A stretch of 64,000 bases of DNA from Cellvibrionaceae bacterium. Lineage in GTDB: Bacteria; Pseudomonadota; Gammaproteobacteria; Pseudomonadales; Cellvibrionaceae. The stretch's first letter is position 1; each line of letters opens with the position of its first letter. Both the position numbers and the translations under genes were made by a program. A model generated the notes under the pieces. The model ran no database searches, was not told the DNA's origin, and saw only the letters and a program-made list of their open reading frames with translations. Positions 1 to 11,569 of the stretch are shown here, one piece after another. The DNA lies in the NCBI GenBank assembly GCA_021151825.1, contig JAGKWQ010000014.1, positions 6,455 to 70,454 on the forward strand, in the 5' to 3' direction.

Positions 1-83
1 AAAAAATCGCAAAAGAGCTTGGTGTATCACCAACACTGGTTAATTTTATGATTTGCGATGCATTGTTCAAACGTCTACGGTAA
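1..83 (+). CDS. 3' end of a PvdS-like ECF sigma factor (partial, runs off window start)
   Basis: Frame starting at nt 3 reads KIAKELGVSPTLVNFMICDALFKRLR*, close to the PvdS region-4 sequence DIARELGVSPTLVNFMIRDAL as I recall it. Overlaps the phnR 3' end by 17 nt. Not in the ORF track. Confidence 0.7.
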   Translation, partial: KIAKELGVSPTLVNFMICDALFKRLR

Positions 84-771
84 CTTCAATCGCATTGTGT
101 AACCAATGTTCAATGTTGTAATCGATTAATTTTTTTCCTTCATCATAACGCCAGCGCAAAATTTTCAGGCAGGGATGTCCATCGCTACAGCCCAATGCGA
201 TGGCTTGGTCTGTTTCCAGGCTGCCCACCTGAATATTACTGGTTTCGCTACCGATATTTACGCCGTAATGGCGATTTTGTAATTCGGTGATGGATTGGCT
301 GAGGTCAAAGTTTTCCAGATCTGGAAAGCGGCGCGTATCAAAAAATAAATCTTCGATTAACACGGGGCGGCCATCAAGGCTACGAATACGGCGCACTGTA
401 AGCAGCGAGTTTTTGCCGCTAAGTTGCATCGCTTCTTTTAACGATGGTGATGCAGGACATTTTTCGATTTTTAATACTTGCGTTTGCGCCATGCGGCCTT
501 GTTCAACTGCCATGGTATTGAAATTAACTTTGCGTTTGGCATCAATGACAAAACGTGCCGGTGCAACAAACCAGCCGCGGCGGTTTTGTCGATAAATCAA
601 ACCTTCGGATTCGAGTTTTACCAAGGCATCGCGCAAGGTAATACGGGTGGTACTGAATTGTTCCACCAGTTCGCGTTCGGACGGCAATTTATCATTAGCT
701 ACCAGGCGTCCTGATTGAATAATCGTTTGCAAATGCCGCCGCAATTGTTGGTAAATCGGTATCGCTTCCAT
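67..771 (-). CDS. phnR: GntR/HutC (UTRA) family repressor, PhnR-like phosphonate regulator
   Basis: N-terminal wHTH (KLPSERELVEQFSTTRITLRDALVKLESEGLIYRQNRRGWFV), C-terminal UTRA domain, last gene of an operon with phnX. Confidence 0.85.
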   Translation of the reverse strand: MEAIPIYQQLRRHLQTIIQSGRLVANDKLPSERELVEQFSTTRITLRDALVKLESEGLIYRQNRRGWFVAPARFVIDAKRKVNFNTMAVEQGRMAQTQVLKIEKCPASPSLKEAMQLSGKNSLLTVRRIRSLDGRPVLIEDLFFDTRRFPDLENFDLSQSITELQNRHYGVNIGSETSNIQVGSLETDQAIALGCSDGHPCLKILRWRYDEGKKLIDYNIEHWLHNAIEVTVDV

Positions 772-881: not shown

Positions 882-1679
882 TCAGGGTTTTTCGTTACGA
901 GCCAAACGACATTCAATATCGGCTAATACGCTGGGCAAATCTGCTACGGAATCAATAAAATAATGCGCTCCGGTATGCTCCAGGCTGCGATAGGCCCCAC
1001 AGCGTAAAGTGGCGCGCGCCTCTGGTGATAATTGTTGCCATTCTGTTTCACCAAGCCCGACGGCATTACCGCTAATTGCGACGGCAACTGTCCACATACC
1101 GGCGTTGCGGCCTTCACTGATACCGGGCGCGGTATCATCCACCTTCACGCAATGTTGCACTGCACTCACACCCAATTGCACAAGATTTGAAAGCGCTGCC
1201 GCTGCAGCGGGTCTGGTTACGGGCACTTCATCGGCAGCAACGATACAATCTGGCACAAAGCCTTGTTTTGCCGCTGCTACCACTAAATTATCAATCATCG
1301 CGCGTCCATAACCGGTGGTGGTACCGATTTTTAAACCGCGTGCGCGCACTGCAACCAACATATCCAATGTGCCGGGAACCAGTTTGGTATGTAATTCAAT
1401 TTGCTCGCGTTGCAATGGAATCAAGCGTTGATACAGCGCATCAATTTCTGCTTCTGTCGGCAGGCGGCCATGCCGTGTAATCCAGGCCTGTTGAATGCGC
1501 GGTTGTTGCAACAATCGACAAATGTGCACACGCTTTTCGGTGCCCATAGGTTCGCGTGCTTCAGCGAGGGTAATGTCAATACCGTGTTCCGCAAATAATT
1601 CTACAAATGCTTTTAGCGGTGCACGTGAACCGAAATCTACCAGTGTGCCCGCCCAATCAAAAATAACTGCTTCTAACAT
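882..1679 (-). CDS. phnX: Phosphonoacetaldehyde hydrolase (phosphonatase), HAD family
   Basis: AVIFDWAGTLVDFGSRAP motif I, AREPMG, GTTTGY, VKVDDT, EGRNAGMWTV. Start set at ATG 1679 (AAGG SD upstream, no overlap with the upstream gene) rather than 1742. Confidence 0.93.
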   Translation of the reverse strand: MLEAVIFDWAGTLVDFGSRAPLKAFVELFAEHGIDITLAEAREPMGTEKRVHICRLLQQPRIQQAWITRHGRLPTEAEIDALYQRLIPLQREQIELHTKLVPGTLDMLVAVRARGLKIGTTTGYGRAMIDNLVVAAAKQGFVPDCIVAADEVPVTRPAAAAALSNLVQLGVSAVQHCVKVDDTAPGISEGRNAGMWTVAVAISGNAVGLGETEWQQLSPEARATLRCGAYRSLEHTGAHYFIDSVADLPSVLADIECRLARNEKP

Positions 1680-1692
1680 ATTGAAAACCTTG

Positions 1693-2871
1693 TTAAACAA
1701 TGTTGATAAAATCGAGTGGTTGTTGTGCGGCGATTTGCTCAATCACTAACTCCATAAAACCACCGCTACAAGTCATGCCTTTGCCACCAATGCCGGTGAC
1801 GGCATGAATATATTTTTGAACGCGTGTTGCGAGAATTGAATTGTCGTGCTGGCTGTAATATCCGTTCCAGAAACGGTTGATGCGTAATTCATCTACACCG
1901 AGTATGCGTTGCGCTTCAGTGAGGATTAATTGGTTGATGTGTTGATCGTTGTGATAATCAAGCGAATCAACATCCAGTGCGTTGGTATAGTGATGTGAAT
2001 CACCAATAATCAATGAACCGTCTGCACGCTGGGCAAATAACAAATGAATGCCTTCTGCTTGCAATTGCTGTTGATATTCCGAGGCAACTAAATTCGAATA
2101 GGAAGGACAGCTATGGAATGCGTCGTAACGGCGAATCGATAAACCGGTTAGCAAATTGCAATGTAATTTCACCTGGCTGGACGCAATGGTATCCATCATT
2201 TGTAATTTGCAAATTCGCATTTCCGGTGTTTGTAATATCGAGGGGAATAAACGATTGAGTTGATGACCACAACAAATCAGGACATCGCGCGCGCTATAGA
2301 TCGCATTGTCAGCAGTGCGCAGGTTACATCCGGAATTATTTTCTTCCACTGAGTGGATCAGGCTACCATTTCGATAATCACAGCGGCCAGACTGGATAAT
2401 CACTTGTAATAACGCTGCTAATAATTTGGGGCTGTCCACTGTGGCATCATCAGGAAAAAATAATCCACCTTTGGCGTAATCTTTATTCAGTGGTTGTGAT
2501 AATTCGCAACATTCATTAGCACTCAACAGTCGGCTGGCATAACCTTGTCCATCATTTAGTTGCTGCATTTCCTCCAGCAATTGCAACTCCTGCTCATCTG
2601 ATGCGACATACAAAGAGCCATTTTTTTTCCAGGGCAGGGGAATTGATTTATTAATTTCCGTTAAATGGTGTACTGTCCTCGCCCCGATATTACGCCAGTT
2701 ATTCAGGCTCACACCGGATGGAACCAGTTGTCCGAAATTGCGCACGCTGGCGCCTTTGGCTTCCACGCCTGATTCTAATAATAATACTGACCATCCACGT
2801 TGTATCGCGTGATAGGCCGCAAATGTGCCGAGAATTCCAGCACCGACTATAGCGAGATCATACTGTTTCAT
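1693..2871 (-). CDS. FAD-dependent amine oxidoreductase (DAO family, TIGR03364/PbfC-like)
   Basis: GAGILG Rossmann motif, GASVRNFGQ, RICKLQMM, IIGDSHHY and TGIGGKGMT motifs, next to phnX. ATG at 2871 preferred over TTG at 2877. Confidence 0.85.
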   Translation of the reverse strand: MKQYDLAIVGAGILGTFAAYHAIQRGWSVLLLESGVEAKGASVRNFGQLVPSGVSLNNWRNIGARTVHHLTEINKSIPLPWKKNGSLYVASDEQELQLLEEMQQLNDGQGYASRLLSANECCELSQPLNKDYAKGGLFFPDDATVDSPKLLAALLQVIIQSGRCDYRNGSLIHSVEENNSGCNLRTADNAIYSARDVLICCGHQLNRLFPSILQTPEMRICKLQMMDTIASSQVKLHCNLLTGLSIRRYDAFHSCPSYSNLVASEYQQQLQAEGIHLLFAQRADGSLIIGDSHHYTNALDVDSLDYHNDQHINQLILTEAQRILGVDELRINRFWNGYYSQHDNSILATRVQKYIHAVTGIGGKGMTCSGGFMELVIEQIAAQQPLDFINIV

Positions 2872-2879
2872 AACCAACC

Positions 2880-4184
2880 TTACTCATAACAAAATTTCAT
2901 GGGGGATAAAGGACGTGCGCGTAAACGCCGATTGAAATAGGCGAGGGACAATGCCATTAACAGCATTCCCAAAAAACCAAAGCTATAGCTGCCGGTGACG
3001 ACAAAATCGATCCATTGCAATTGTGGTTGGATAAAATTTTTGAACAGCAAAATAACAATGGTGCCGATATACCCAAACGCATCGGCGACATAAATTAAAA
3101 AACCGGCGTTAGCAACGCTGCCACTAGCGGCCACCAGGCGATCAAAGAAAATGCAATTGAAGGGAATGTAACTCATGTAGAGGCCGGCATTTAATAGCAA
3201 CATCCACCAAAGCCCGTTAATGATGTCTAATTGAAATAATGCCGTTGCTAGCGCAGACAGTGCGAACCCCGCAATCACCACCCAGTGTAATAAACAGAGC
3301 GCGCGCAAATTATTCGTGACCCACATGCTCAGCCACATAATTCCTAATACCAATAACGCAATAGGAATACTGGTGGTGGCGAAAATTTCGGGTGCGTTGC
3401 CATAACCCAATTCAATCCACAATTCCGCCGCAAAATTATCGGTGAAATCGCGAAATGCGGTGAGCAACATGTAAGTAAAAATCAGCGCGGTTAAACCCCA
3501 TCCAAATTGTTGGTAAAATGCCTGGCGTTGTGCGCGGTCCATCGGGCGCCGTTCCCGGCGCTGTGCAATATCGTCTGGTGTCGGTGGTGGTGTTTGTGCG
3601 AGTAACCAAATGCAAATCATCACCAACGGTAAAAATAACGCACCGCACACGGCGGGCATCCAGAACTCAGGAACACCTGCATCCACAATTAACCAGCGGC
3701 CAATGGTTTTTACGATGCCGGAACCGAAAATTAAACTCGTACACAAAATAGCGCCGAGCGCTTCAGTCACACGCCTGCCTTCGAGGTAACTGAATACCAA
3801 ACCCCATACCAGTCCCAAAGGTAAACCGTTGGCAAACAGTGCGATGATTTTTAATTCCGGAGGTAGCAACGCAAATAACACCAACATCAATTGCGCCCAT
3901 AACACCAGCCCGATAAACCAGGAAAAGCGTTTTTCAGCGGTGATTTCCGAAATGACTTTTATGCCGATAAATTTCGATAACGCATAACCCAATACTTGCG
4001 CAATGAGCAATGCGGTTTTGAAATCCAGCGACCAATCCCAACCGGCAACATGATCAAATGTTGCCGCAGTAAATGGTTTGCGATAGGCATACATGCTGAT
4101 GTACGTCATCATCGCCACGCCGCCGGTAAATAAAATAAATACCGGCGTTGTGCAGCGCTGCAAATAGCGATGTAAGGCAGTCAT
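2880..4184 (-). CDS. MFS-like integral membrane protein, DUF5690-type; probable aminophosphonate permease
   Basis: About 12 hydrophobic segments; motifs MYAYRKPFTAATF, GYALSKFIGIKVISE, FSYLEGRR, YMSYIPFNCIFFDR, GFLIYVADAFGY. Confidence 0.75.
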   Translation of the reverse strand: MTALHRYLQRCTTPVFILFTGGVAMMTYISMYAYRKPFTAATFDHVAGWDWSLDFKTALLIAQVLGYALSKFIGIKVISEITAEKRFSWFIGLVLWAQLMLVLFALLPPELKIIALFANGLPLGLVWGLVFSYLEGRRVTEALGAILCTSLIFGSGIVKTIGRWLIVDAGVPEFWMPAVCGALFLPLVMICIWLLAQTPPPTPDDIAQRRERRPMDRAQRQAFYQQFGWGLTALIFTYMLLTAFRDFTDNFAAELWIELGYGNAPEIFATTSIPIALLVLGIMWLSMWVTNNLRALCLLHWVVIAGFALSALATALFQLDIINGLWWMLLLNAGLYMSYIPFNCIFFDRLVAASGSVANAGFLIYVADAFGYIGTIVILLFKNFIQPQLQWIDFVVTGSYSFGFLGMLLMALSLAYFNRRLRARPLSPMKFCYE

Positions 4185-4189
4185 GATGC

Positions 4190-6787
4190 TCAGAAACCAA
4201 ACTTGATGCCGGCTTGCCCGCGCACGCCGTAATATTCAATTTGTTTCGGGCGATCACTGCTGCCGATGTAATAACTCAAGGGTTCATCAGTGAGATTATT
4301 GAGCTCCGCAAATACCATTAACTGTTCAGTGATTTGAAATGAGGTGCTGAAATCGACGCTGGTATAGTCACCATAGTAATTATCAAATTTGGCTTCCTCT
4401 CCGTGTTCTTCGATGTAAGCACCTTTCTGGTTAATCGCAATTCGCGCCGAAAAACGTCCGTCATCGTAATAAAACGTGATGTTGTATAACTCGTCGGCCT
4501 GGCGTGGAATAGGTACAGTACCGGAGCGACCATCAATGGTCATGGACGAATTCATTGCTGTGAAATTGGTTTGTATTCCGGTATGGCGCAACAGACCGGG
4601 TAAAAAAGTAAACCGTTTATTCAGCGCGATTTCAGCACCGTAGAGTTTTGCATCGGCGCCATTTTCAGGACGGAAAAAATTCACGCCGGACTTGCCATTA
4701 AATTCACCGATGCTGCTGCTTTGGAAAATAGGATCGGTGATGTCCTTGTAAAAAAGCCCGCCGGATAACAAACCTATATCGCCAAAATAATGTTCGGCCA
4801 TCAGGTCATAATTCCAACTGTAAGTCGGATCGAGTTGGGTGTTGCCGCTGAAAAACTCGTTGTCCGCTTCGGAATAGGTGCCGCCGGGATTAAGCGAGGC
4901 GAAATCGGGACGAGTGAAACTGCGAGTCGCTGACAACCGTAAATTGGTGTTGTCATTGATGTTGTATTTCACATGGACCGATGGTAATACAGAAACATAA
5001 TCTTTCTTATCGTTGCTATTTTGTAAGCTGGATTTATTCGTCGCCGCATCCGTTACCAATACCTGTCCGGCAACTTCTGTGATGGTCTGCTCCAAACGCA
5101 CACCGGAAATCAGATTCCATTGATCATTCAATTGCCAGGTTGCCATACCGTAAGCAGCTGTATGTTGTTCCTCGACATCGAAATTGCGACCCAATGCGGC
5201 ACCGTTGGAAATCAACGCCGATTCACTGTCAACCAATACCAGATTATGGCGGTTGGCGTTGTACCAATCACTCAGGTCTTTATTGGAAACCACTTTGGAA
5301 AAATGTTGTTGGTAAACGGGACCGATGTTTAAATCATCCAGATAATCCGTGCGACCCGGCTGGTCAATTTGCTGGAAGTCAGCGAGTGTAGGTGCAGGGC
5401 CCGCCGCTTTATTCCACTCATAAAATTCATCGGCATAAGAAGCGGTGCGTTGCTTATCGCGATACTTTGCGCCGAATTTTAAGGCGAGATCATCGTTGAT
5501 ATCAGTATTGAAATTAACACTGGCAACCGCTTTATCTTTTTCTTCTACGTGGACTTTATAAAGTTCGACCCAGGATAAAACTTCTTTGCGCGGGTCCATG
5601 GCAAAACCATCGGGCAAATGAGTGCTAATGGCATCGGCAGGGTCGCTGCCACCGTCAATGGTGTTATACGCATATTTTTTTCCGGTGCCGCGATCTTCAA
5701 GCCCGGTGTAGCCCACATTTTTTTGATCGAAACGAACCACAAAATAGGAATTGTCATCGCAATTGGGAATACAACCGTATTTAAATTCATTCGCATACGT
5801 TGCCAGGGTCCAATCCCAGCGACTGGCGTCACTAAGGTGATGTTCGCCACCGATCTGGTAACCGGTCATTTCGGTAATCAATTCGTTGTGAATGTTTTGT
5901 ACTTCCACGCGATCCTTATCAAAACGGTAGCGGTGTTTGTAATGGGTTTCGTCATCAATCAGCGTGCCGTAAAGTGCGCGTGCTGTGAATTTATTGTCAT
6001 CGTTGGGAGCAAATTCCATCGCTGCATTTAATCCGTAAGTTTCGCGCTCGCCGGTGTAATCGCGTAATTCCAAACGATAAATTCCCAAACCATCATCGCC
6101 TCTACGCGGTTCGTAATTGTCGGTTGCCCATGCGCGTTTCCATGCCGTACCGTTGACTAAAAAACCAAAACGTCCATCGTCAGTACGATTGCCATAAAGC
6201 ACACTCGCGTTGTAACCACTGTGGTCATCCGCTTTTTCATTAAATGAATCTGCCAGAGAGATATGAAAAGTTTCCTGCTCCGGCGCGGTGCGGGTAATAA
6301 AATTGACACTGCCACCAATCGCATCGCCTTCCATATCAGCGGTTAAGGTTTTGGATACTTCGATGCGTTGGATCATTTCTGTTGGAAAAAAATCAAATGC
6401 AGTAGCGCGGCTGGTGGTTTCTTCTTCCGCAGTGGGAATGCGATCACCATTTAACGTGGTGGAATTCCATTGCGAGGGCAGGCCGCGTACTGCCACAAAA
6501 CGGCCTTCGCCCTGATCGCGTTCAATCGATACGCCCGGCACGCGCTGCAATGCTTCTGCCGCATTGCGATCCGGTAGCGTTGCCATATCGGTAGCGCTCA
6601 CCACACTCATCACCCGGTTGGAATGTTGCTGGATTTCCAGTGCGCGTTGTTCGCCGCGCACCAAATGTCCGAGTACCTGGATTTCTTCTATTGCGGGATT
6701 ATCACTGGTGGCTTCTTGGGCCACTAACGGTGCGCTCGCCAACGCAATGGCCAATGCCAGGGGGTTGCGCAGAAGTAACGAATTCAT
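4190..6787 (-). CDS. TonB-dependent outer-membrane receptor
   Basis: Signal peptide, IEEIQVLG TonB box region, plug (AEALQRVPGVSIERDQGEGRFVAVRG; IEVSKTLTADMEGDAIGGSVN), NLTDEP near the C-terminus, terminal Phe. Confidence 0.95.
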   Translation of the reverse strand: MNSLLLRNPLALAIALASAPLVAQEATSDNPAIEEIQVLGHLVRGEQRALEIQQHSNRVMSVVSATDMATLPDRNAAEALQRVPGVSIERDQGEGRFVAVRGLPSQWNSTTLNGDRIPTAEEETTSRATAFDFFPTEMIQRIEVSKTLTADMEGDAIGGSVNFITRTAPEQETFHISLADSFNEKADDHSGYNASVLYGNRTDDGRFGFLVNGTAWKRAWATDNYEPRRGDDGLGIYRLELRDYTGERETYGLNAAMEFAPNDDNKFTARALYGTLIDDETHYKHRYRFDKDRVEVQNIHNELITEMTGYQIGGEHHLSDASRWDWTLATYANEFKYGCIPNCDDNSYFVVRFDQKNVGYTGLEDRGTGKKYAYNTIDGGSDPADAISTHLPDGFAMDPRKEVLSWVELYKVHVEEKDKAVASVNFNTDINDDLALKFGAKYRDKQRTASYADEFYEWNKAAGPAPTLADFQQIDQPGRTDYLDDLNIGPVYQQHFSKVVSNKDLSDWYNANRHNLVLVDSESALISNGAALGRNFDVEEQHTAAYGMATWQLNDQWNLISGVRLEQTITEVAGQVLVTDAATNKSSLQNSNDKKDYVSVLPSVHVKYNINDNTNLRLSATRSFTRPDFASLNPGGTYSEADNEFFSGNTQLDPTYSWNYDLMAEHYFGDIGLLSGGLFYKDITDPIFQSSSIGEFNGKSGVNFFRPENGADAKLYGAEIALNKRFTFLPGLLRHTGIQTNFTAMNSSMTIDGRSGTVPIPRQADELYNITFYYDDGRFSARIAINQKGAYIEEHGEEAKFDNYYGDYTSVDFSTSFQITEQLMVFAELNNLTDEPLSYYIGSSDRPKQIEYYGVRGQAGIKFGF

Positions 6788-6843
6788 GCTGTCGATCCGG
6801 TTGTTGGTTGTGTTGATTGGTGATTTCTATTTGCACTTAATTC

Positions 6844-6861
6844 ATCTGGTCTATACCAGAT
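6844..6861. promoter_or_regulatory. PhnR/PhnF-type operator 1
   Basis: Palindrome ATCTGGT-CTAT-ACCAGAT. The core reads TGGTATAGACCA on the minus strand, the HutC-subfamily/PhnF-type operator, and lies just downstream of the predicted -10. Confidence 0.75.
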
Positions 6862-6870
6862 AATGAAGTC

Positions 6871-6915
6871 ACCATAACCCAACAATATGTCAGTTCAATG
6901 ACGGATAAATGACGA
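6871..6915 (-). promoter_or_regulatory. PhoB-dependent promoter of the TBDR-phn operon (Pho box plus -10)
   Basis: Minus strand carries three 11-bp-phased repeats TCGTCATTTAT / CCGTCATTGAA / CTGACATATTG. The -10-like TATGGT (6871-6876) sits 10 nt after the 18-bp box. Confidence 0.75.
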
Positions 6916-7012
6916 TTTTGAGGACAGTTGCATGAGCAGGAAAAATAGGACTAATCACTTTATAGAAACTATTACCTGTGGCTTTCGTCGCACGGAAGAA
7001 ATTGTTGGTTGG

Positions 7013-7056
7013 CTGTAACATCAATGTCACTCGCCAGTCATATTGATAGGTAATAT
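7013..7056 (+). promoter_or_regulatory. PhoB-dependent promoter of the secreted hydrolase (Pho box plus -10)
   Basis: 11-bp-phased repeats CTGTAACATCA / ATGTCACTCGC / CAGTCATATTG, then -10-like TAATAT at 7051-7056. Confidence 0.65.
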
Positions 7057-7079
7057 TGGACTAGACCAGATTTGGTCTA
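7057..7079. promoter_or_regulatory. PhnR/PhnF-type operator 2
   Basis: TGGACTAGACCA (7057-7068) plus an overlapping inverted repeat TAGACCA-GATT-TGGTCTA (7062-7079). Same core as operator 1. Confidence 0.7.
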
Positions 7080-7111
7080 ACTTTTAATTAACGTATATAA
7101 GGAGGGTTCCT

Positions 7112-8899
7112 ATGTTGAACATACAGTTGCCGCGCCCATGGCGATCAGCAATGAAATTGTTATTAACCGGTGCGTTACTCAGCTGTGCAAGCTGGAGTAG
7201 TGCTGCACCGAAAGCGTTATTGATTGGTATCGATGGCGCGCAGTACGAGCGTATCCAGGCACTCAATACGCCTAATTTTGATCGCTTGTATATCAACCGC
7301 GCTTACACCGGTGGTATTGCGGGTGAGTCCAGCCAGCAATCCACTTATAGCGGTCCGGGTTGGTCCACAATTCTCACGGGGAATTGGGTTCACAAACATC
7401 AAGTCACATCCAACAGCTCAGGTCTTGCCAATCCCGCTTACCCGAGTATTTTCAAGCGACTTAAGCAGGCCAACAGCAATTTGAAAGTGGCGAGTATTGT
7501 TAACTGGGCTCCCATCAACACCCAATTTTTTACCAACGATGTTGCGCTAATTAATAAAGTCCAAAGTGGTTTGAGTGATACCAATGTAGTTACCGAAGCA
7601 ATTTCATTTATGAACAGCGGCGGTGATTTTACGTTTGTGCATCTCGACGGCCCTGACCACGCCGGTCACAGCTACGGTTTTGGTAGCAGTTACGATGCAA
7701 GCATCATCACCGCTGATCAACAACTCGGGCAATTGCTCAATGCAGTTGAGCAATTAAAACTAACAACGGGTGATGATTGGTTGGTATTGGTGACTACCGA
7801 TCACGGCCGCGAAGCCACCGGTTTTAACCACGGCAATCAAACATTCAATGAAAAAACAATTTTTATTGCGAGCAATAAAATTCTCAATCAGGAATTCAGC
7901 CAACACGTCACTACATTGGCAAATACTGCATTCAATAATATTTACGGTTATGCCGCGCAAACATCAATTACGCCTACATTGCTGCGTCACATGGGCGTAG
8001 AGCCACAACGTACCTGGCAATTGGATGGTCTCCCATTAATTGGCAATCTCGGCGTGCGTAAAGTCATGGCGGGCACCAATACCGATATCGCCTGGTATAG
8101 CGATAGCACCGGCACTGTGGATATTTATCGCAATGGAACCTATGTGGATAGCGCGCTGGCAACCAGTCTGGGATGGAATGATCCTGCGGTTGTGCAAGGT
8201 GTGCCTGATTATTCATTGGTATTGAATAACACGCCGGTAAGTTATCGCGGCGCGTTATCGAATGTTGATATCACCGCTATCCTGAATTGGAGTACCAGCC
8301 GCGCGTATTTTTTCCGCAGCGATAATCGTTACGTGCGTTACAACAAAACTGCCGATCAAAGTGATAGTGGTTATCCAGCCGATGTTACCAACAGCAACTG
8401 GCCGGGCTTGGGTAATTATAAAAATTTAATCACTGCCAGTTTTAACGCGGAGAATGGAAAAAGTTATTTCTTTTTAAGTGATGGAAATTATATCCAGTAC
8501 GATAACGCCACCGACAAAGCCGACACCGGTTATCCCAAACCAACCAATAACACCAATTGGCCTGGCCTTGGTAATTACGCGCAAGATATTCGCGCAACCT
8601 TGCGTTGGACTGGCAACAAAGTGTTTTTCTTTTTCGCGAACGGAACCTATTCGCGCTACGACCTGGTGAATAACAGTGTGGATAGCGGTTATCCAAAACC
8701 GGTTAACAACAGCACTTGGCCGGGCCTCGGAAATTATGCGACAGAAATTACTGAAGCTGTTAAATGGAGCAATAGTCGAGCGTACTTTTTTCTGAGCAAT
8801 CAGCGCTATATTCGTTACAGCATTACCGCTGATTCAGTGGATGCAGGTTATCCAGCTACCGTTAATAATACGAGCTGGCCGGGATTGTTGAATCCTTAA
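7112..8899 (+). CDS. Secreted alkaline-phosphatase-superfamily (NPP/phosphodiesterase-type) hydrolase with C-terminal hemopexin-repeat domain
   Basis: GGAGG SD and signal peptide. Metal/catalytic motifs IGIDG, YSGPGWSTILTG, HLDGPDHAGH, TTDHG. Four C-terminal YFF..Y..Y...GYP...WPGL repeats. Confidence 0.88.
   Translation: MLNIQLPRPWRSAMKLLLTGALLSCASWSSAAPKALLIGIDGAQYERIQALNTPNFDRLYINRAYTGGIAGESSQQSTYSGPGWSTILTGNWVHKHQVTSNSSGLANPAYPSIFKRLKQANSNLKVASIVNWAPINTQFFTNDVALINKVQSGLSDTNVVTEAISFMNSGGDFTFVHLDGPDHAGHSYGFGSSYDASIITADQQLGQLLNAVEQLKLTTGDDWLVLVTTDHGREATGFNHGNQTFNEKTIFIASNKILNQEFSQHVTTLANTAFNNIYGYAAQTSITPTLLRHMGVEPQRTWQLDGLPLIGNLGVRKVMAGTNTDIAWYSDSTGTVDIYRNGTYVDSALATSLGWNDPAVVQGVPDYSLVLNNTPVSYRGALSNVDITAILNWSTSRAYFFRSDNRYVRYNKTADQSDSGYPADVTNSNWPGLGNYKNLITASFNAENGKSYFFLSDGNYIQYDNATDKADTGYPKPTNNTNWPGLGNYAQDIRATLRWTGNKVFFFFANGTYSRYDLVNNSVDSGYPKPVNNSTWPGLGNYATEITEAVKWSNSRAYFFLSNQRYIRYSITADSVDAGYPATVNNTSWPGLLNP
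8270..8896 (+). repeat. Four hemopexin-like protein repeats (~53 aa, beta-propeller blades)
   Basis: RAYFFRSDNRYVRY..DSGYP..NSNWPGL; KSYFFLSDGNYIQY..DTGYP..NTNWPGL; KVFFFFANGTYSRY..DSGYP..NSTWPGL; RAYFFLSNQRYIRY..DAGYP..NTSWPGL. Confidence 0.9.
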
Positions 8900-8905
8900 T
8901 TACTC

Positions 8906-8937
8906 ATCCCCCGCGCAAGCCAAAATGCGCGGGGGAT
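8906..8937 (+). terminator. Intrinsic terminator-like hairpin after the hydrolase
   Basis: Perfect 12-bp stem ATCCCCCGCGCA / TGCGCGGGGGAT with an 8-nt loop, followed by TATTATT. Confidence 0.8.
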
Positions 8938-9053
8938 TATTATTAACTTTAAAATCTTAAGAAATTTACTCCTTAATTTTTCCAACGAATTTTACTAATA
9001 AATTTAATTTATCAAATTTTGCCTGGCCGATGTATGGATCGTTATCTATAGCG

Positions 9054-9068
9054 TACCCCATAGGGGTA
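9054..9068. promoter_or_regulatory. Palindrome resembling a CsoR/RcnR/FrmR-family operator
   Basis: TACCCC-ATA-GGGGTA perfect inverted repeat in a very AT-rich spacer. No cognate regulator gene in the window. Confidence 0.4.
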
Positions 9069-9366
9069 TGGTTAATTTATTCTTTAACACAAAAATAAAA
9101 TTTATTCATATATGAAATAGATGTTTTATTATTTATCGATAAATAAATTAAAAATTTATTAAAAAAATTGAAACATTTGGTGGGTAATATGATTGTAACA
9201 GTCAAGGAGCGATGATAGGATCTAACGTTCATGGAGTGGGAATTAAATAGTCAAGGCAGGGTAGTTCATAATTTTTGCTGAATTTCAGCATTGCTGTATC
9301 GTCTGCTCCCTGCTTTTTCTGGTATTCCTTCCTAAAATATACTTATAAATTTTTCCATTTAAGTTT

Positions 9367-9396
9367 TATATCAGTCCATTGGTTTTGACTGATATA
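9367..9396. other. Inverted repeat in the BGC leader region
   Basis: TATATCAGTC-N10-GACTGATATA perfect 10-bp stem. A second palindrome TGCTGAA-T-TTCAGCA lies near 9277-9291. Confidence 0.45.
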
Positions 9397-9632
9397 TGTG
9401 TTTTTCTAATTTTATATTTATTTTCCGACTCTGTTTTCGGATGGGTTTTTATTGCCTTTTTTCAAGGTCGATGTATTTAAACTTTAGGTTGGGGGCGCGT
9501 TATTTAATGGTAGTTCACTTACCTTAAATATCCAGTGTCCAGCCGATGAATTAAACGTATTTAATTTATTTTCCTTGAAAATTTACTGTATTTTTTCAGG
9601 GGCTAATTACTTAATTTTTTTGGATAGGGATC

Positions 9633-10475
9633 ATGAAGGTAGCAGTTATTGGTGCGGGCATCATGGGCGTTGATCTTGCCTTGGCATTGGTTGCTGCAGG
9701 GCATAAAGTCTTGCTCAAGGATATACATCAAGATGCGCTTGATTTTGCAAAACAAGCTATACCGCAAAAATTGCGTGGTTATAAGATGCTGAATCCCGCA
9801 CTCAGGAATGTGAGTGTCGAAAGTGTTTTTGAATCAATTCACTTTGTGTTGACCTATGCAGGAATGGATCAGGTTGATTGGGTTGTTGAAAATATCCCTG
9901 AAGATGTTGAACTGAAAAAAAAGGTGTATCAGGAATTGGCTTCCGCTTGCAATAGCTCTGTTTATTACGGAGTTAATACAAGTTGTATATCGATCACAAA
10001 GATTGCCGCCGTTACACCGGATCCATCGCGGGTAATTGGAATGCATTTTATGAACCCTGTGCCAATCAAAACCGGGGTTGAAGCCATACGCGGCTACCAT
10101 ACATCCGAAGAGACTATAGACGCAGCAAAACAATTTCTTAAGTCAATGAATAAACAAATGATTTTGGTAAACGATTACCCCGGGTTTGTTGCCAATCGTT
10201 TATCGCATTTATTTATGAATGAAGCAGCATTTCTGGTTCAGGATCGGGTTGCAGACCCGGCGGCAATTGATGCAATTTTCAAGGAAGGTTATGGGCATAG
10301 TATGGGGCCATTGGAGACGGCTGACTTGATCGGATTGGATACTGTAGTGCTATCTCTGAAAGTACTTTATGAAAACTATCAAGATACTAAATTCAGATGT
10401 TGCCCATTACTACAAAAAATGGTGGATGCAGGCGATCTGGGTAGAAAGAGTGGTAAAGGATTTTACGTCTATTAA
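9633..10475 (+). CDS. 3-hydroxyacyl-CoA dehydrogenase-like (FkbK/ZmaG/XcnB-type, glyceryl-ACP dehydrogenase)
   Basis: GAGIMG, VVENIPE, NTSCISIT, GMHFMNPVP, PGFVANRL, GPLETADLIGLD. First gene of the FkbH cassette. Confidence 0.9.
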   Translation: MKVAVIGAGIMGVDLALALVAAGHKVLLKDIHQDALDFAKQAIPQKLRGYKMLNPALRNVSVESVFESIHFVLTYAGMDQVDWVVENIPEDVELKKKVYQELASACNSSVYYGVNTSCISITKIAAVTPDPSRVIGMHFMNPVPIKTGVEAIRGYHTSEETIDAAKQFLKSMNKQMILVNDYPGFVANRLSHLFMNEAAFLVQDRVADPAAIDAIFKEGYGHSMGPLETADLIGLDTVVLSLKVLYENYQDTKFRCCPLLQKMVDAGDLGRKSGKGFYVY

Positions 10476-10483
10476 TTTGGGGA

Positions 10484-11569
10484 ATGACGATGCTGACGAT
10501 CGATAAAGAAAGGATTTATCCTGCTTCATCCAACAATCAAAAGCTGCAGCCGATTAAATGTGTTGTATGGGACTTGGATAATACCGTATGGCACGGCGTA
10601 TTAGCAGAAAATGATGAGCTTGTTTTGAAGGATGGTGTTGTCGATATTATTGCGGCCCTTGATAAAAAAGGTGTACTTCAGTCCATTGCCAGCAAGAATA
10701 ATTATGATGATGCAGTCAATAAGCTGGAGCAATTCGGGCTGCTTGATTACTTTCTTTACCCTCAAATCAATTGGAATGCAAAGTCATCTTCCGTTGAGCT
10801 GATTTGTAAAAGTTTGAATATTGGTATCGATACATTCCTGTTTATTGACGATCAACCTTTTGAGCTTGAGGAAGTAAAGCTCGCTCATCCACACGTAGAA
10901 ATTTTTGATGCTGCCGACTACCAATCGCTGATGGAGTTTACCCGTATAGATTCTATTGCAGTAGCTGATGACGCAGCTATGCGCAGGGTTCGCTACCAGG
11001 AAGATATGAAGCGGCATCGTAGTGAGGAAGAGTTTGTAGGAACGCCAGAGGCTTTTCTCGCTTCTTTAAATATGGTTTTTACCATTTCAAAAGCATCCCC
11101 CGAGGACTTACTTAGGGCGGAAGAACTGACGGTTAGAACCAATCAACTGAATTCAACGGGTATTACTTACAGTGCAGACGAATTATTTGAATTCATGCAT
11201 TCAGATAAACATGAATTATTAATTTGTGAGTTGACTGATAAGTATGGCTCATATGGAAAAATTGGCCTGACACTAATAGAAAAATGTGAGTCCGTTGATG
11301 TAGTTAAGTTATTACTGATGTCGTGTCGTACAGCTGCTCGTGGAGTAGGTAGTGTATTACTCAGCTATTTAATGCGGCAGGCAAAATCACGCGGTAACTC
11401 GTTGCACGCAGAATTCAGAAGGACGGATCGTAATCGGCAAATGCTGGTTACCTATCAATTTTCAGGTTTCGTAGAACAAAGTCGAGATGCCGAAGGGAAC
11501 ATTTTATTTGAGCACAACCTAGCTGATATCCAGGAATATCCTGATTATATAAAAGTTTTTCATCCGTAA
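10484..11569 (+). CDS. fkbH: FkbH-like glyceryl transferase/phosphatase (HAD-IIIC)
   Basis: VWDLDNTVWHG, SIASKNN, YPQINWNAKS, FIDDQPFE, RTNQLNSTG, DKYGSYGKIG, LLMSCR. Confidence 0.93.
   Translation: MTMLTIDKERIYPASSNNQKLQPIKCVVWDLDNTVWHGVLAENDELVLKDGVVDIIAALDKKGVLQSIASKNNYDDAVNKLEQFGLLDYFLYPQINWNAKSSSVELICKSLNIGIDTFLFIDDQPFELEEVKLAHPHVEIFDAADYQSLMEFTRIDSIAVADDAAMRRVRYQEDMKRHRSEEEFVGTPEAFLASLNMVFTISKASPEDLLRAEELTVRTNQLNSTGITYSADELFEFMHSDKHELLICELTDKYGSYGKIGLTLIEKCESVDVVKLLLMSCRTAARGVGSVLLSYLMRQAKSRGNSLHAEFRRTDRNRQMLVTYQFSGFVEQSRDAEGNILFEHNLADIQEYPDYIKVFHP

Follow-up and report, generated by a model that had tools for sequence, protein, structure and literature searches.

Paired Pho-box motifs and predicted HutC-type operators at two putative divergent promoters of a phosphonate locus in a Cellvibrionaceae bacterium

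Results

The window, meaning the whole 64,000-nt stretch of DNA that was analysed (C21:6455-70454), comes from a 5.77-Mb genome of 46% G+C in 70 contigs, the nearest public relative of which is a Cellvibrio MAG. Within it, a 324-bp spacer (6788-7111) parts two divergent transcription units (Table 1). To the left, reading away from the spacer, lie genes for a TonB-dependent receptor (TBDR), a DUF5690 membrane protein, a PbfD-type FAD amine oxidoreductase, the phosphonoacetaldehyde hydrolase PhnX and a PhnR-like GntR/HutC regulator. To the right lies a gene for an exported enzyme of the NPP/alkaline-phosphatase superfamily with hemopexin repeats (NPP-hemopexin), the transcript of which appears to be monocistronic because a strong terminator is present at 8906-8937. 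The TIGR03364/PbfD family has been linked to the oxidation of AEP and N-methyl-AEP (PMC10590968), and the DUF5690 gene is syntenic with TBDR, PbfD and phnR genes in genomes G072, G119 and G287. A scan of the 110-bp gap between phnX and phnR (772-881) gave no consensus promoter. A GC-rich inverted repeat lies in the same gap.

Table 1. Genes and regulatory features on either side of and within the divergent spacer.
Feature	Position	Strand	Details
PhnR-like GntR/HutC regulator gene	67..771	-	GntR and UTRA domains; closes the operon predicted as its target
PhnX phosphonoacetaldehyde hydrolase gene	882..1742	-	TIGR01422, 325 bits vs cut-off 220
PbfD-type FAD amine oxidoreductase gene	1693..2877	-	TIGR03364, 340 bits vs cut-off 285
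DUF5690 membrane protein gene	2880..4184	-	PF18943, 516 bits; presumed inner-membrane carrier
TonB-dependent receptor (TBDR) gene	4190..6787	-	First gene of left operon; TIGR01782, 515 bits; Plug and barrel domains
Left operator ATCTGGTCTATACCAGAT	6844..6861 (core 6847-6858)		Predicted PhnR-like repressor site, TBDR operon; ~+6 to +17
Candidate -10 TATGGT, TBDR-operon promoter	6876-6871	-	10 nt past last Pho unit; read from sequence
Left Pho-box array TCGTCAT ttat CCGTCAT tgaa CTGACAT	6887..6915	-	19.5 bits, rank 8 of 11.5 million positions; units TCGTCAT 6915-6909, CCGTCAT 6904-6898, CTGACAT 6893-6887
Right Pho-box array CTGTAAC atca ATGTCAC tcgc CAGTCAT	7013..7041	+	24.7 bits, rank 3 of 11.5 million positions; units CTGTAAC 7013-7019, ATGTCAC 7024-7030, CAGTCAT 7035-7041
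Candidate -10 TAATAT, NPP-hemopexin promoter	7051..7056	+	9 nt past last Pho unit; read from sequence
Right operator TATTGGACTAGACCAGAT	7054..7071 (core 7057-7068)		Candidate site; abuts -10 and covers expected start, ~-6 to +6
Everted repeat TAGACCAgattTGGTCTA	7062..7079	+	One arm common to right operator
Exported NPP/alkaline-phosphatase-superfamily enzyme gene with hemopexin repeats	7112..8899	+	Pfam Phosphodiest and Hemopexin

We compared the 67-771 protein with named regulator families. Its best match was TIGR03337 (PhnR) at 237.9 bits, short of the curated equivalog cut-off of 296.75, and for this reason we refer to it as PhnR-like. The same protein scored 100 bits on TIGR02325 (PhnF) vs 238 on TIGR03337, and its Litoribrevibacter orthologue was likewise below the TIGR03337 cut-off (268.9 bits). 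It is the sole HutC-type regulator nearby and is a candidate cognate regulator encoded at the locus itself; only one HutC paralogue occurs elsewhere in the genome, which is 26% identical and sits beside an unrelated flavoprotein gene. A TIGR03337 search of a sparse sample of 300 genomes across the class returned two matches. One of these, a PhnR-like HutC protein of 35% identity in genome G552 (L065, G552:C67:1-12000), is encoded between an amino-acid-type ABC ATPase gene and serB, and was rejected as a phosphonate regulator on account of this amino-acid transporter and SerB context and the lack of phn genes.

We next turned to the repeats within the spacer. On both sides, three CTGTCAT-like 7-mers with 4-nt spacers recur at an 11-bp phase, the arrangement of a putative Pho box; the phase is exact in both three-unit arrays, and ATTG follows the last unit of each to give CATATTG. 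A Pho-box 7-mer matrix, trained on nine canonical Pho promoters of the host genome with this locus left out, placed both arrays among the ten best in the genome, where the remaining top-ranked arrays belonged to the pstS-ompA, porin, EAL-domain and pstB/pstS promoters. Since two outward-facing top-ten arrays lie <130 bp apart, chance can be excluded as their origin. The right array was also among the 34 best matches considered in a scan of the host genome with a weighted E. coli-type Pho-box consensus, the intergenic matches of which lay upstream of phoB, pstS, pstB, phoH, a PhoU_div gene, the pstS-ompA fusion, a porin gene, two EAL-domain genes and a TBDR gene. Both partners of the phosphate-sensing pair are encoded in the host genome, PhoB at 359 bits on TIGR02154 (cut-off 296) and PhoR at 418 bits on TIGR02966 (cut-off 334).

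The predicted Pho regulon of the host extends to other functions (C7:105699, C28:54618, C1:65895 and C7:171306), namely two EAL-domain (c-di-GMP phosphodiesterase) genes, a PstS-OmpA fusion and a second TBDR, the last bearing an N-terminal carboxypeptidase-regulatory-like domain.

The spacing between array and candidate -10 element, a TAnnnT hexamer (Table 1), matches that of the host phoB and pstS promoters, where the gap is likewise 10 nt. On both sides of the spacer the Pho box appears to stand in the place of the -35 element, ~10 nt ahead of the -10 hexamer. No consensus sigma-70 -35/-10 promoter was found on either side of the spacer, as would be expected of activator-dependent promoters. 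The left -10 is weak, and an alternative, CATTAT, lies at 6865-6860. A minus-strand consensus promoter at 7030-7001 was set aside as probably spurious, given that its GTGACA hexamer is a Pho unit read on the opposite strand.

Each candidate -10 is accompanied by a palindrome. The left palindrome, TGGTCTATACCA, reads TGGTATAGACCA on the minus strand (6858-6847) and begins 12 nt beyond the -10; the core of the right one, TGGACTAGACCA (7057-7068), follows TAATAT with a 0-nt gap. Both carry the GTnTAnAC core of a HutC operator and are accordingly candidate sites for such a protein. We scored them with an operator matrix built from 19 training sites, all from other genera. The left 18-mer was the best match in the entire 5.77-Mb genome (24.9 bits), the runner-up at 19.0 bits lying inside a coding sequence. 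The right operator, which has three mismatches to the 16-mer consensus, scored 13.8 bits and ranked 51st of 5.77 million positions, with ~0.003 such matches expected in 324 bp. The 12-bp core is generic to the HutC subfamily (DasR, NagR) and therefore proves nothing by itself. Indeed, TGGTCTATACCA occurs near the G552 regulator, indicating that the core motif is common to HutC regulators of other pathways, although the influence of G552 on the matrix is small because it contributed a single site of the 19. As the core TGGTCTAGACCA is generic to HutC regulators and recurs in G552, assignment of the palindromes to the PhnR-like protein rests on the co-occurrence described below.

Taken together, these findings bear out every element of the initial annotation at its stated position, namely three 11-bp-phased repeats per side ending in CATATTG, a -10 element 9-10 nt past each array and an operator after each -10; the -10 elements read here are TAATAT at 9 nt on the right and TATGGT at 10 nt on the left. 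It had also portrayed the two promoters as mirror images. The order of elements is indeed the same on both sides; the symmetry is inexact in that one side has 12 nt more between -10 and operator than the other, the operator abutting the -10 on the right and lying 12 nt beyond it on the left.

Several further features of the spacer were considered. An inverted duplication was rejected as the origin of the two sides, since only the functional motifs match (arms of 15 nt and 17 nt, at 87% and 71% identity) and the spacer centre is not conserved. Looping between the operators was likewise rejected: their centres are 210 bp apart (~20 helical turns) in the window and in the close relative L001 vs 197 bp in the close relative L002, and the idea is unsupported because the phase between them is not conserved. 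An extra TGGTCTA at 7073-7079 scored -1.0 bits as a third operator (7070-7079), which is not significant, and may be only a hairpin arm. The everted repeat TAGACCAgattTGGTCTA is followed by ACTTTTAATT, and together these form a predicted hairpin at the extreme 5' end of the NPP-hemopexin mRNA (-8.8 kcal/mol, z = -3.1). This hairpin at 7062-7079 was flagged by a terminator scan and is kept in L001, not in L002; the everted repeat could serve as an mRNA 5'-end hairpin or as an auxiliary half-site. A direct repeat was also observed, AGGAAAAATAGGACTA (6938-6953) being 81% identical to AGGTAATATTGGACTA (7048-7063). The upstream copy, in the poorly conserved spacer centre, could be a half-site relic.

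We then asked which parts of the spacer are conserved. When L001 (95% protein identity) and L002 (88%) were aligned with the window, conserved sequence was seen only at the two operators, the -10 elements and the majority of the GTCA cores in the Pho units, and the central 100 bp were not conserved. The left operator 18-mer and 17 nt of the right operator (AATATTGGACTAGACCA) were invariant in all three sequences. Of the right -10, AATAT was invariant in L001 and L002, and the left -10 was kept in both as TAnGGT. The two proximal units of the left array (GTCAT and GACAT cores) were kept in both relatives, the distal unit aligning poorly in L002, where the right array retained its cores with spacers that vary.

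Conservation extended to other genera. The PhnR-like genes of Litoribrevibacter (G001), of genus g93 (G138 and G176) and of G072 lie within phn clusters, and the clusters around PhnR-like genes are of the types phnW-phnX-phnZ, PbfD-phnR, phnS2T2U2 and TBDR-DUF5690-PbfD-phnR. Intergenic regions of the phn clusters of these four genomes carry ATCTGGTnTAnACCAGAT sites, and in G072 the left operator 18-mer recurs without change ahead of phnW. Whole-genome 16-mer scans of G138 and G176 returned sites with at most one mismatch at two places only, within the phn locus and immediately ahead of the NPP-hemopexin gene. The NPP-hemopexin orthologues of Litoribrevibacter and g93 (52-65% identity) are not on the phnR contig and have nonetheless kept both motifs: a Pho box of 12.3-15.4 bits (chance expectation 0.001-0.004 per 250 nt), then a -10 and one or two operators. 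Over the genomes compared, an NPP-hemopexin gene that is unlinked to phnR and has both motifs was seen in three genera. At the NPP-hemopexin orthologues in G072 and G089 neither motif was found, and membership of this enzyme in the regulon is therefore not universal.

The TBDR promoters tell a similar story in genus g26. In G119, the promoter of the operon of a 52% identical TBDR reads GTTTCAT-tttt-GAGTCAT-aaat-TTGTCAT, 10 nt, TACAAT, 9 nt, TGGACTATACCA, its three-unit Pho array scoring 21.4 bits; in G072 it reads TATTCAT-aaag-ATGTCAT, 10 nt, TAGACT, 10 nt, TGGACGAGTCCA. The order Pho box, -10, operator is also present at the phnS2 and PbfD-phnR promoters of G001, G138 and G176. In all, the succession of Pho box, 9-10 nt, -10 and operator was seen across at least four genera, and the promoters that show it are those of TBDR, NPP-hemopexin, phnS2 and PbfD-phnR. 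PhnR-like genes are present in G089 and G287 as well, where no operator within one mismatch was found in the stretch examined. The predicted operator thus co-occurs with orthologous regulators and targets in G001, G138, G176, G072 and G119 and at the unlinked NPP-hemopexin genes.

Some additional observations were made in these genomes. The TBDR orthologue of G072 (L062 7784-10888) is split into ORFs at 8768-10888 and 7784-8575, its promoter keeping Pho box and palindrome; the gene may have suffered a frameshift or be in decay. The divergent phnW / PbfD-phnR spacers of Litoribrevibacter and g93 (L023 7838-7991, L060 8475-8679 and L061 11855-12038) share a conserved weak Pho-like box, xTTTCAT-nAAA-CTGnAAC (~9 bits), 10 nt before a TATnnT -10 that abuts the operator. 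The phnW side has the operator only, which suggests that just some of the promoters receive the phosphate input. An operator-like 16-mer, ACTGATATAGACCAGA, with two mismatches to the consensus, is identical in two genera (G001:C4:900583-900598 and G176:C4:1310328-1310343) and could point to an additional member of the regulon or be the target of a different HutC protein.

Discussion

Our findings suggest that the spacer comprises two divergent PhoB-dependent promoters, each of which would also be gated by the PhnR-like HutC-family repressor. Under phosphate starvation, phosphorylated PhoB would occupy the 11-bp-phased direct repeats in place of a -35 element and recruit RNA polymerase to the -10 located 9-10 nt downstream, a geometry that fits class II-type activation. 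A dimer of the PhnR-like protein would bind the TGG(T/A)NTANACCA palindrome and sterically block initiation or promoter escape, until a phosphonate-derived effector, probably 2-aminoethylphosphonate or a close derivative, frees it from the DNA. With both gates present, full expression of the TBDR-DUF5690-PbfD-PhnX-PhnR operon and of NPP-hemopexin would need low phosphate together with a phosphonate signal. Judging from the sequence evidence, we put the probability that motifs of both classes are functional and work in the way described at roughly 0.78. Directly observed are the motifs with their rarity, conservation and link to PhnR-like loci, together with the PhoB and PhoR genes; we infer the binding events, where transcription starts, whether each input activates or represses, which effector is involved and how strict the AND logic is.

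Activation by PhoB and repression by a PhnR-like protein on both transcripts had been proposed in the initial annotation, and the proposal gains support from the motif ranks, the presence of PhoB and PhoR and the conservation of the sites; its AND logic is suggested by promoter geometry and the PhnF precedent. The same annotation had named motif conservation in orthologous spacers as a test, and the motifs turned out to be retained. Its placement of the hemopexin enzyme in the phosphonate regulon also agrees with our results, both motifs being kept even where the gene is unlinked to phn genes.

The alternative that survives best, although we consider it unlikely, is that both factors bind with no strict AND: PhoB could be the main switch, with the PhnR-like protein only trimming expression or autoregulating, or derepression alone could give substantial PhoB-independent expression on the left. 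The position of phnR fits such a scheme, for it is the last gene of the operon that its product would repress, and repressor level would track operon activity. The left promoter has a partial -35, TTGAAC, embedded between Pho units with a 16-nt spacer, which could drive PhoB-independent basal transcription, and the right operator matches the matrix only weakly (13.8 bits). Furthermore, AEP catabolism in other bacteria is commonly substrate-induced and insensitive to Pi (PMC8316502). Against this scheme, conservation of the order Pho box, 9-10 nt, -10 and operator across four or more genera speaks for a role of both inputs, and neither side of the spacer has a consensus sigma-70 promoter.

It is less probable still that the palindromes are operators while the repeats are not PhoB sites, having arisen by chance or serving another OmpR-family regulator, so that control would be by phosphonate only. 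Two left units do depart from consensus (CCGTCAT, and CTGACAT with A for the T of GTCA), and the third left unit is altered in L002. However, such an explanation would have to accommodate two genomic top-ten arrays within 130 bp, orthologous promoters with Pho boxes expected 0.001-0.004 times by chance, and a constant 9-10 nt to the -10, as at the host phoB and pstS promoters. Least credible of all is that another HutC-type protein, the C46 paralogue, binds the palindromes or that the PhnR-like protein is an activator: the core motif is common to many HutC regulators and the genome does hold one other paralogue, but that protein, 26% identical and beside a flavoprotein gene, has no matching site nearby, the operator tracks PhnR-like loci across genera, and sites at or downstream of the -10 are in the position of a repressor.

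We therefore return to dual control by PhoB and the PhnR-like repressor as the preferred reading. Since phnR lies inside the operon that it would repress, we speculate that a leaky gate may allow a transient pulse of expression after a phosphate downshift, before repression returns. A broader proposal, which we offer tentatively and at somewhat below even odds, is that the double switch defines a conserved multi-genus regulon for scavenging bound phosphonates. Here, lipids or glycans would lose an aminophosphonate head group to the action of the secreted NPP-hemopexin hydrolase, after which the TBDR and DUF5690 proteins would import this group and PbfD and PhnX would release phosphate from it; the freed phosphonate would be the PhnR inducer, and starvation would first give a short repressor-free pulse that tests the surroundings for substrate before full expression.

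On the strength of the predicted double switch, a TBDR, a DUF5690 carrier and a secreted phosphodiesterase-like enzyme bearing a hemopexin propeller can be assigned to a phosphonate regulon, even where the enzyme gene is unlinked. The switch thereby serves as strong and portable evidence that such a regulon contains a secreted hydrolase not yet characterised. It also gives a concrete lead on how aminophosphonates may be set free from lipids or glycans, a step that is missing in phosphonate cycling. The two compact promoters, of ~60 bp each, are also natural two-input sensor parts responding, as predicted, to low phosphate and phosphonate.

The type of switch is itself ordinary, since textbooks portray phn genes as controlled by a Pho box and a HutC-type repressor together. 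Dual control by PhoB and PhnF is the accepted model for phn operons, and deletions of the PhoB box and the PhnF box have been tested in Agrobacterium (PMC11494704). As in PhoB and PhnF control of C-P lyase (the E. coli model and PphnG of Agrobacterium tumefaciens; PMC11494704), the promoters described here would join a Pho box and the box of a HutC-subfamily GntR repressor, although the Agrobacterium PhnF box, TGTCTAT inverted repeats with a 4-nt gap, differs in layout from our operators (PMC11494704). The two systems are also alike in that the repressor is encoded in the phn cluster and in their rationale, namely that the genes should be expressed only where low phosphate coincides with a phosphonate. 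In contrast to that system, the regulator here is PhnR-like rather than PhnF, the pathway is phosphonatase and PbfD rather than C-P lyase, the arrangement is duplicated on two divergent promoters, and among the predicted targets are an outer-membrane receptor and a secreted enzyme.

The M. smegmatis PhnF site, which goes back to Gebhard et al., is reportedly TGGTATAGACCA, identical to the left operator on the minus strand. PhnF of that organism (phnF/phnDCE) binds two sites in a bidirectional promoter region (PMC7866108), and the likeness comprises a HutC-type repressor, two sites, a divergent promoter region and a phosphate-starvation-induced system. Unlike the present locus with its predicted PhoB control, M. 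smegmatis employs SenX3-RegX3 as activator, the system serves phosphate import, and the repressor gene is itself one of the divergent units.

PhnR of Salmonella enterica (STM0430; phnSTUV, phnWX) offers a third parallel, being a GntR/HutC regulator encoded beside genes for AEP transport and phosphonatase, and TIGR03337 is the closest named family of our regulator. The regulator here differs in scoring below the equivalog cut-off, a TBDR and DUF5690 are found in contrast to PhnSTUV ABC transport, and PbfD replaces PhnW. We found no published operator for a GntR-type PhnR in the literature searched. The dre sites of DasR/NagR, HutC-subfamily regulators of N-acetylglucosamine regulons, have the same palindromic core, TGGTCTAGACCA; effector, regulon and organisms differ. 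Set against these systems, what is new here is the promoter pair and the genes that it is predicted to control: an outer-membrane receptor, a DUF5690 carrier, PbfD in place of PhnW and a secreted NPP-hemopexin enzyme.
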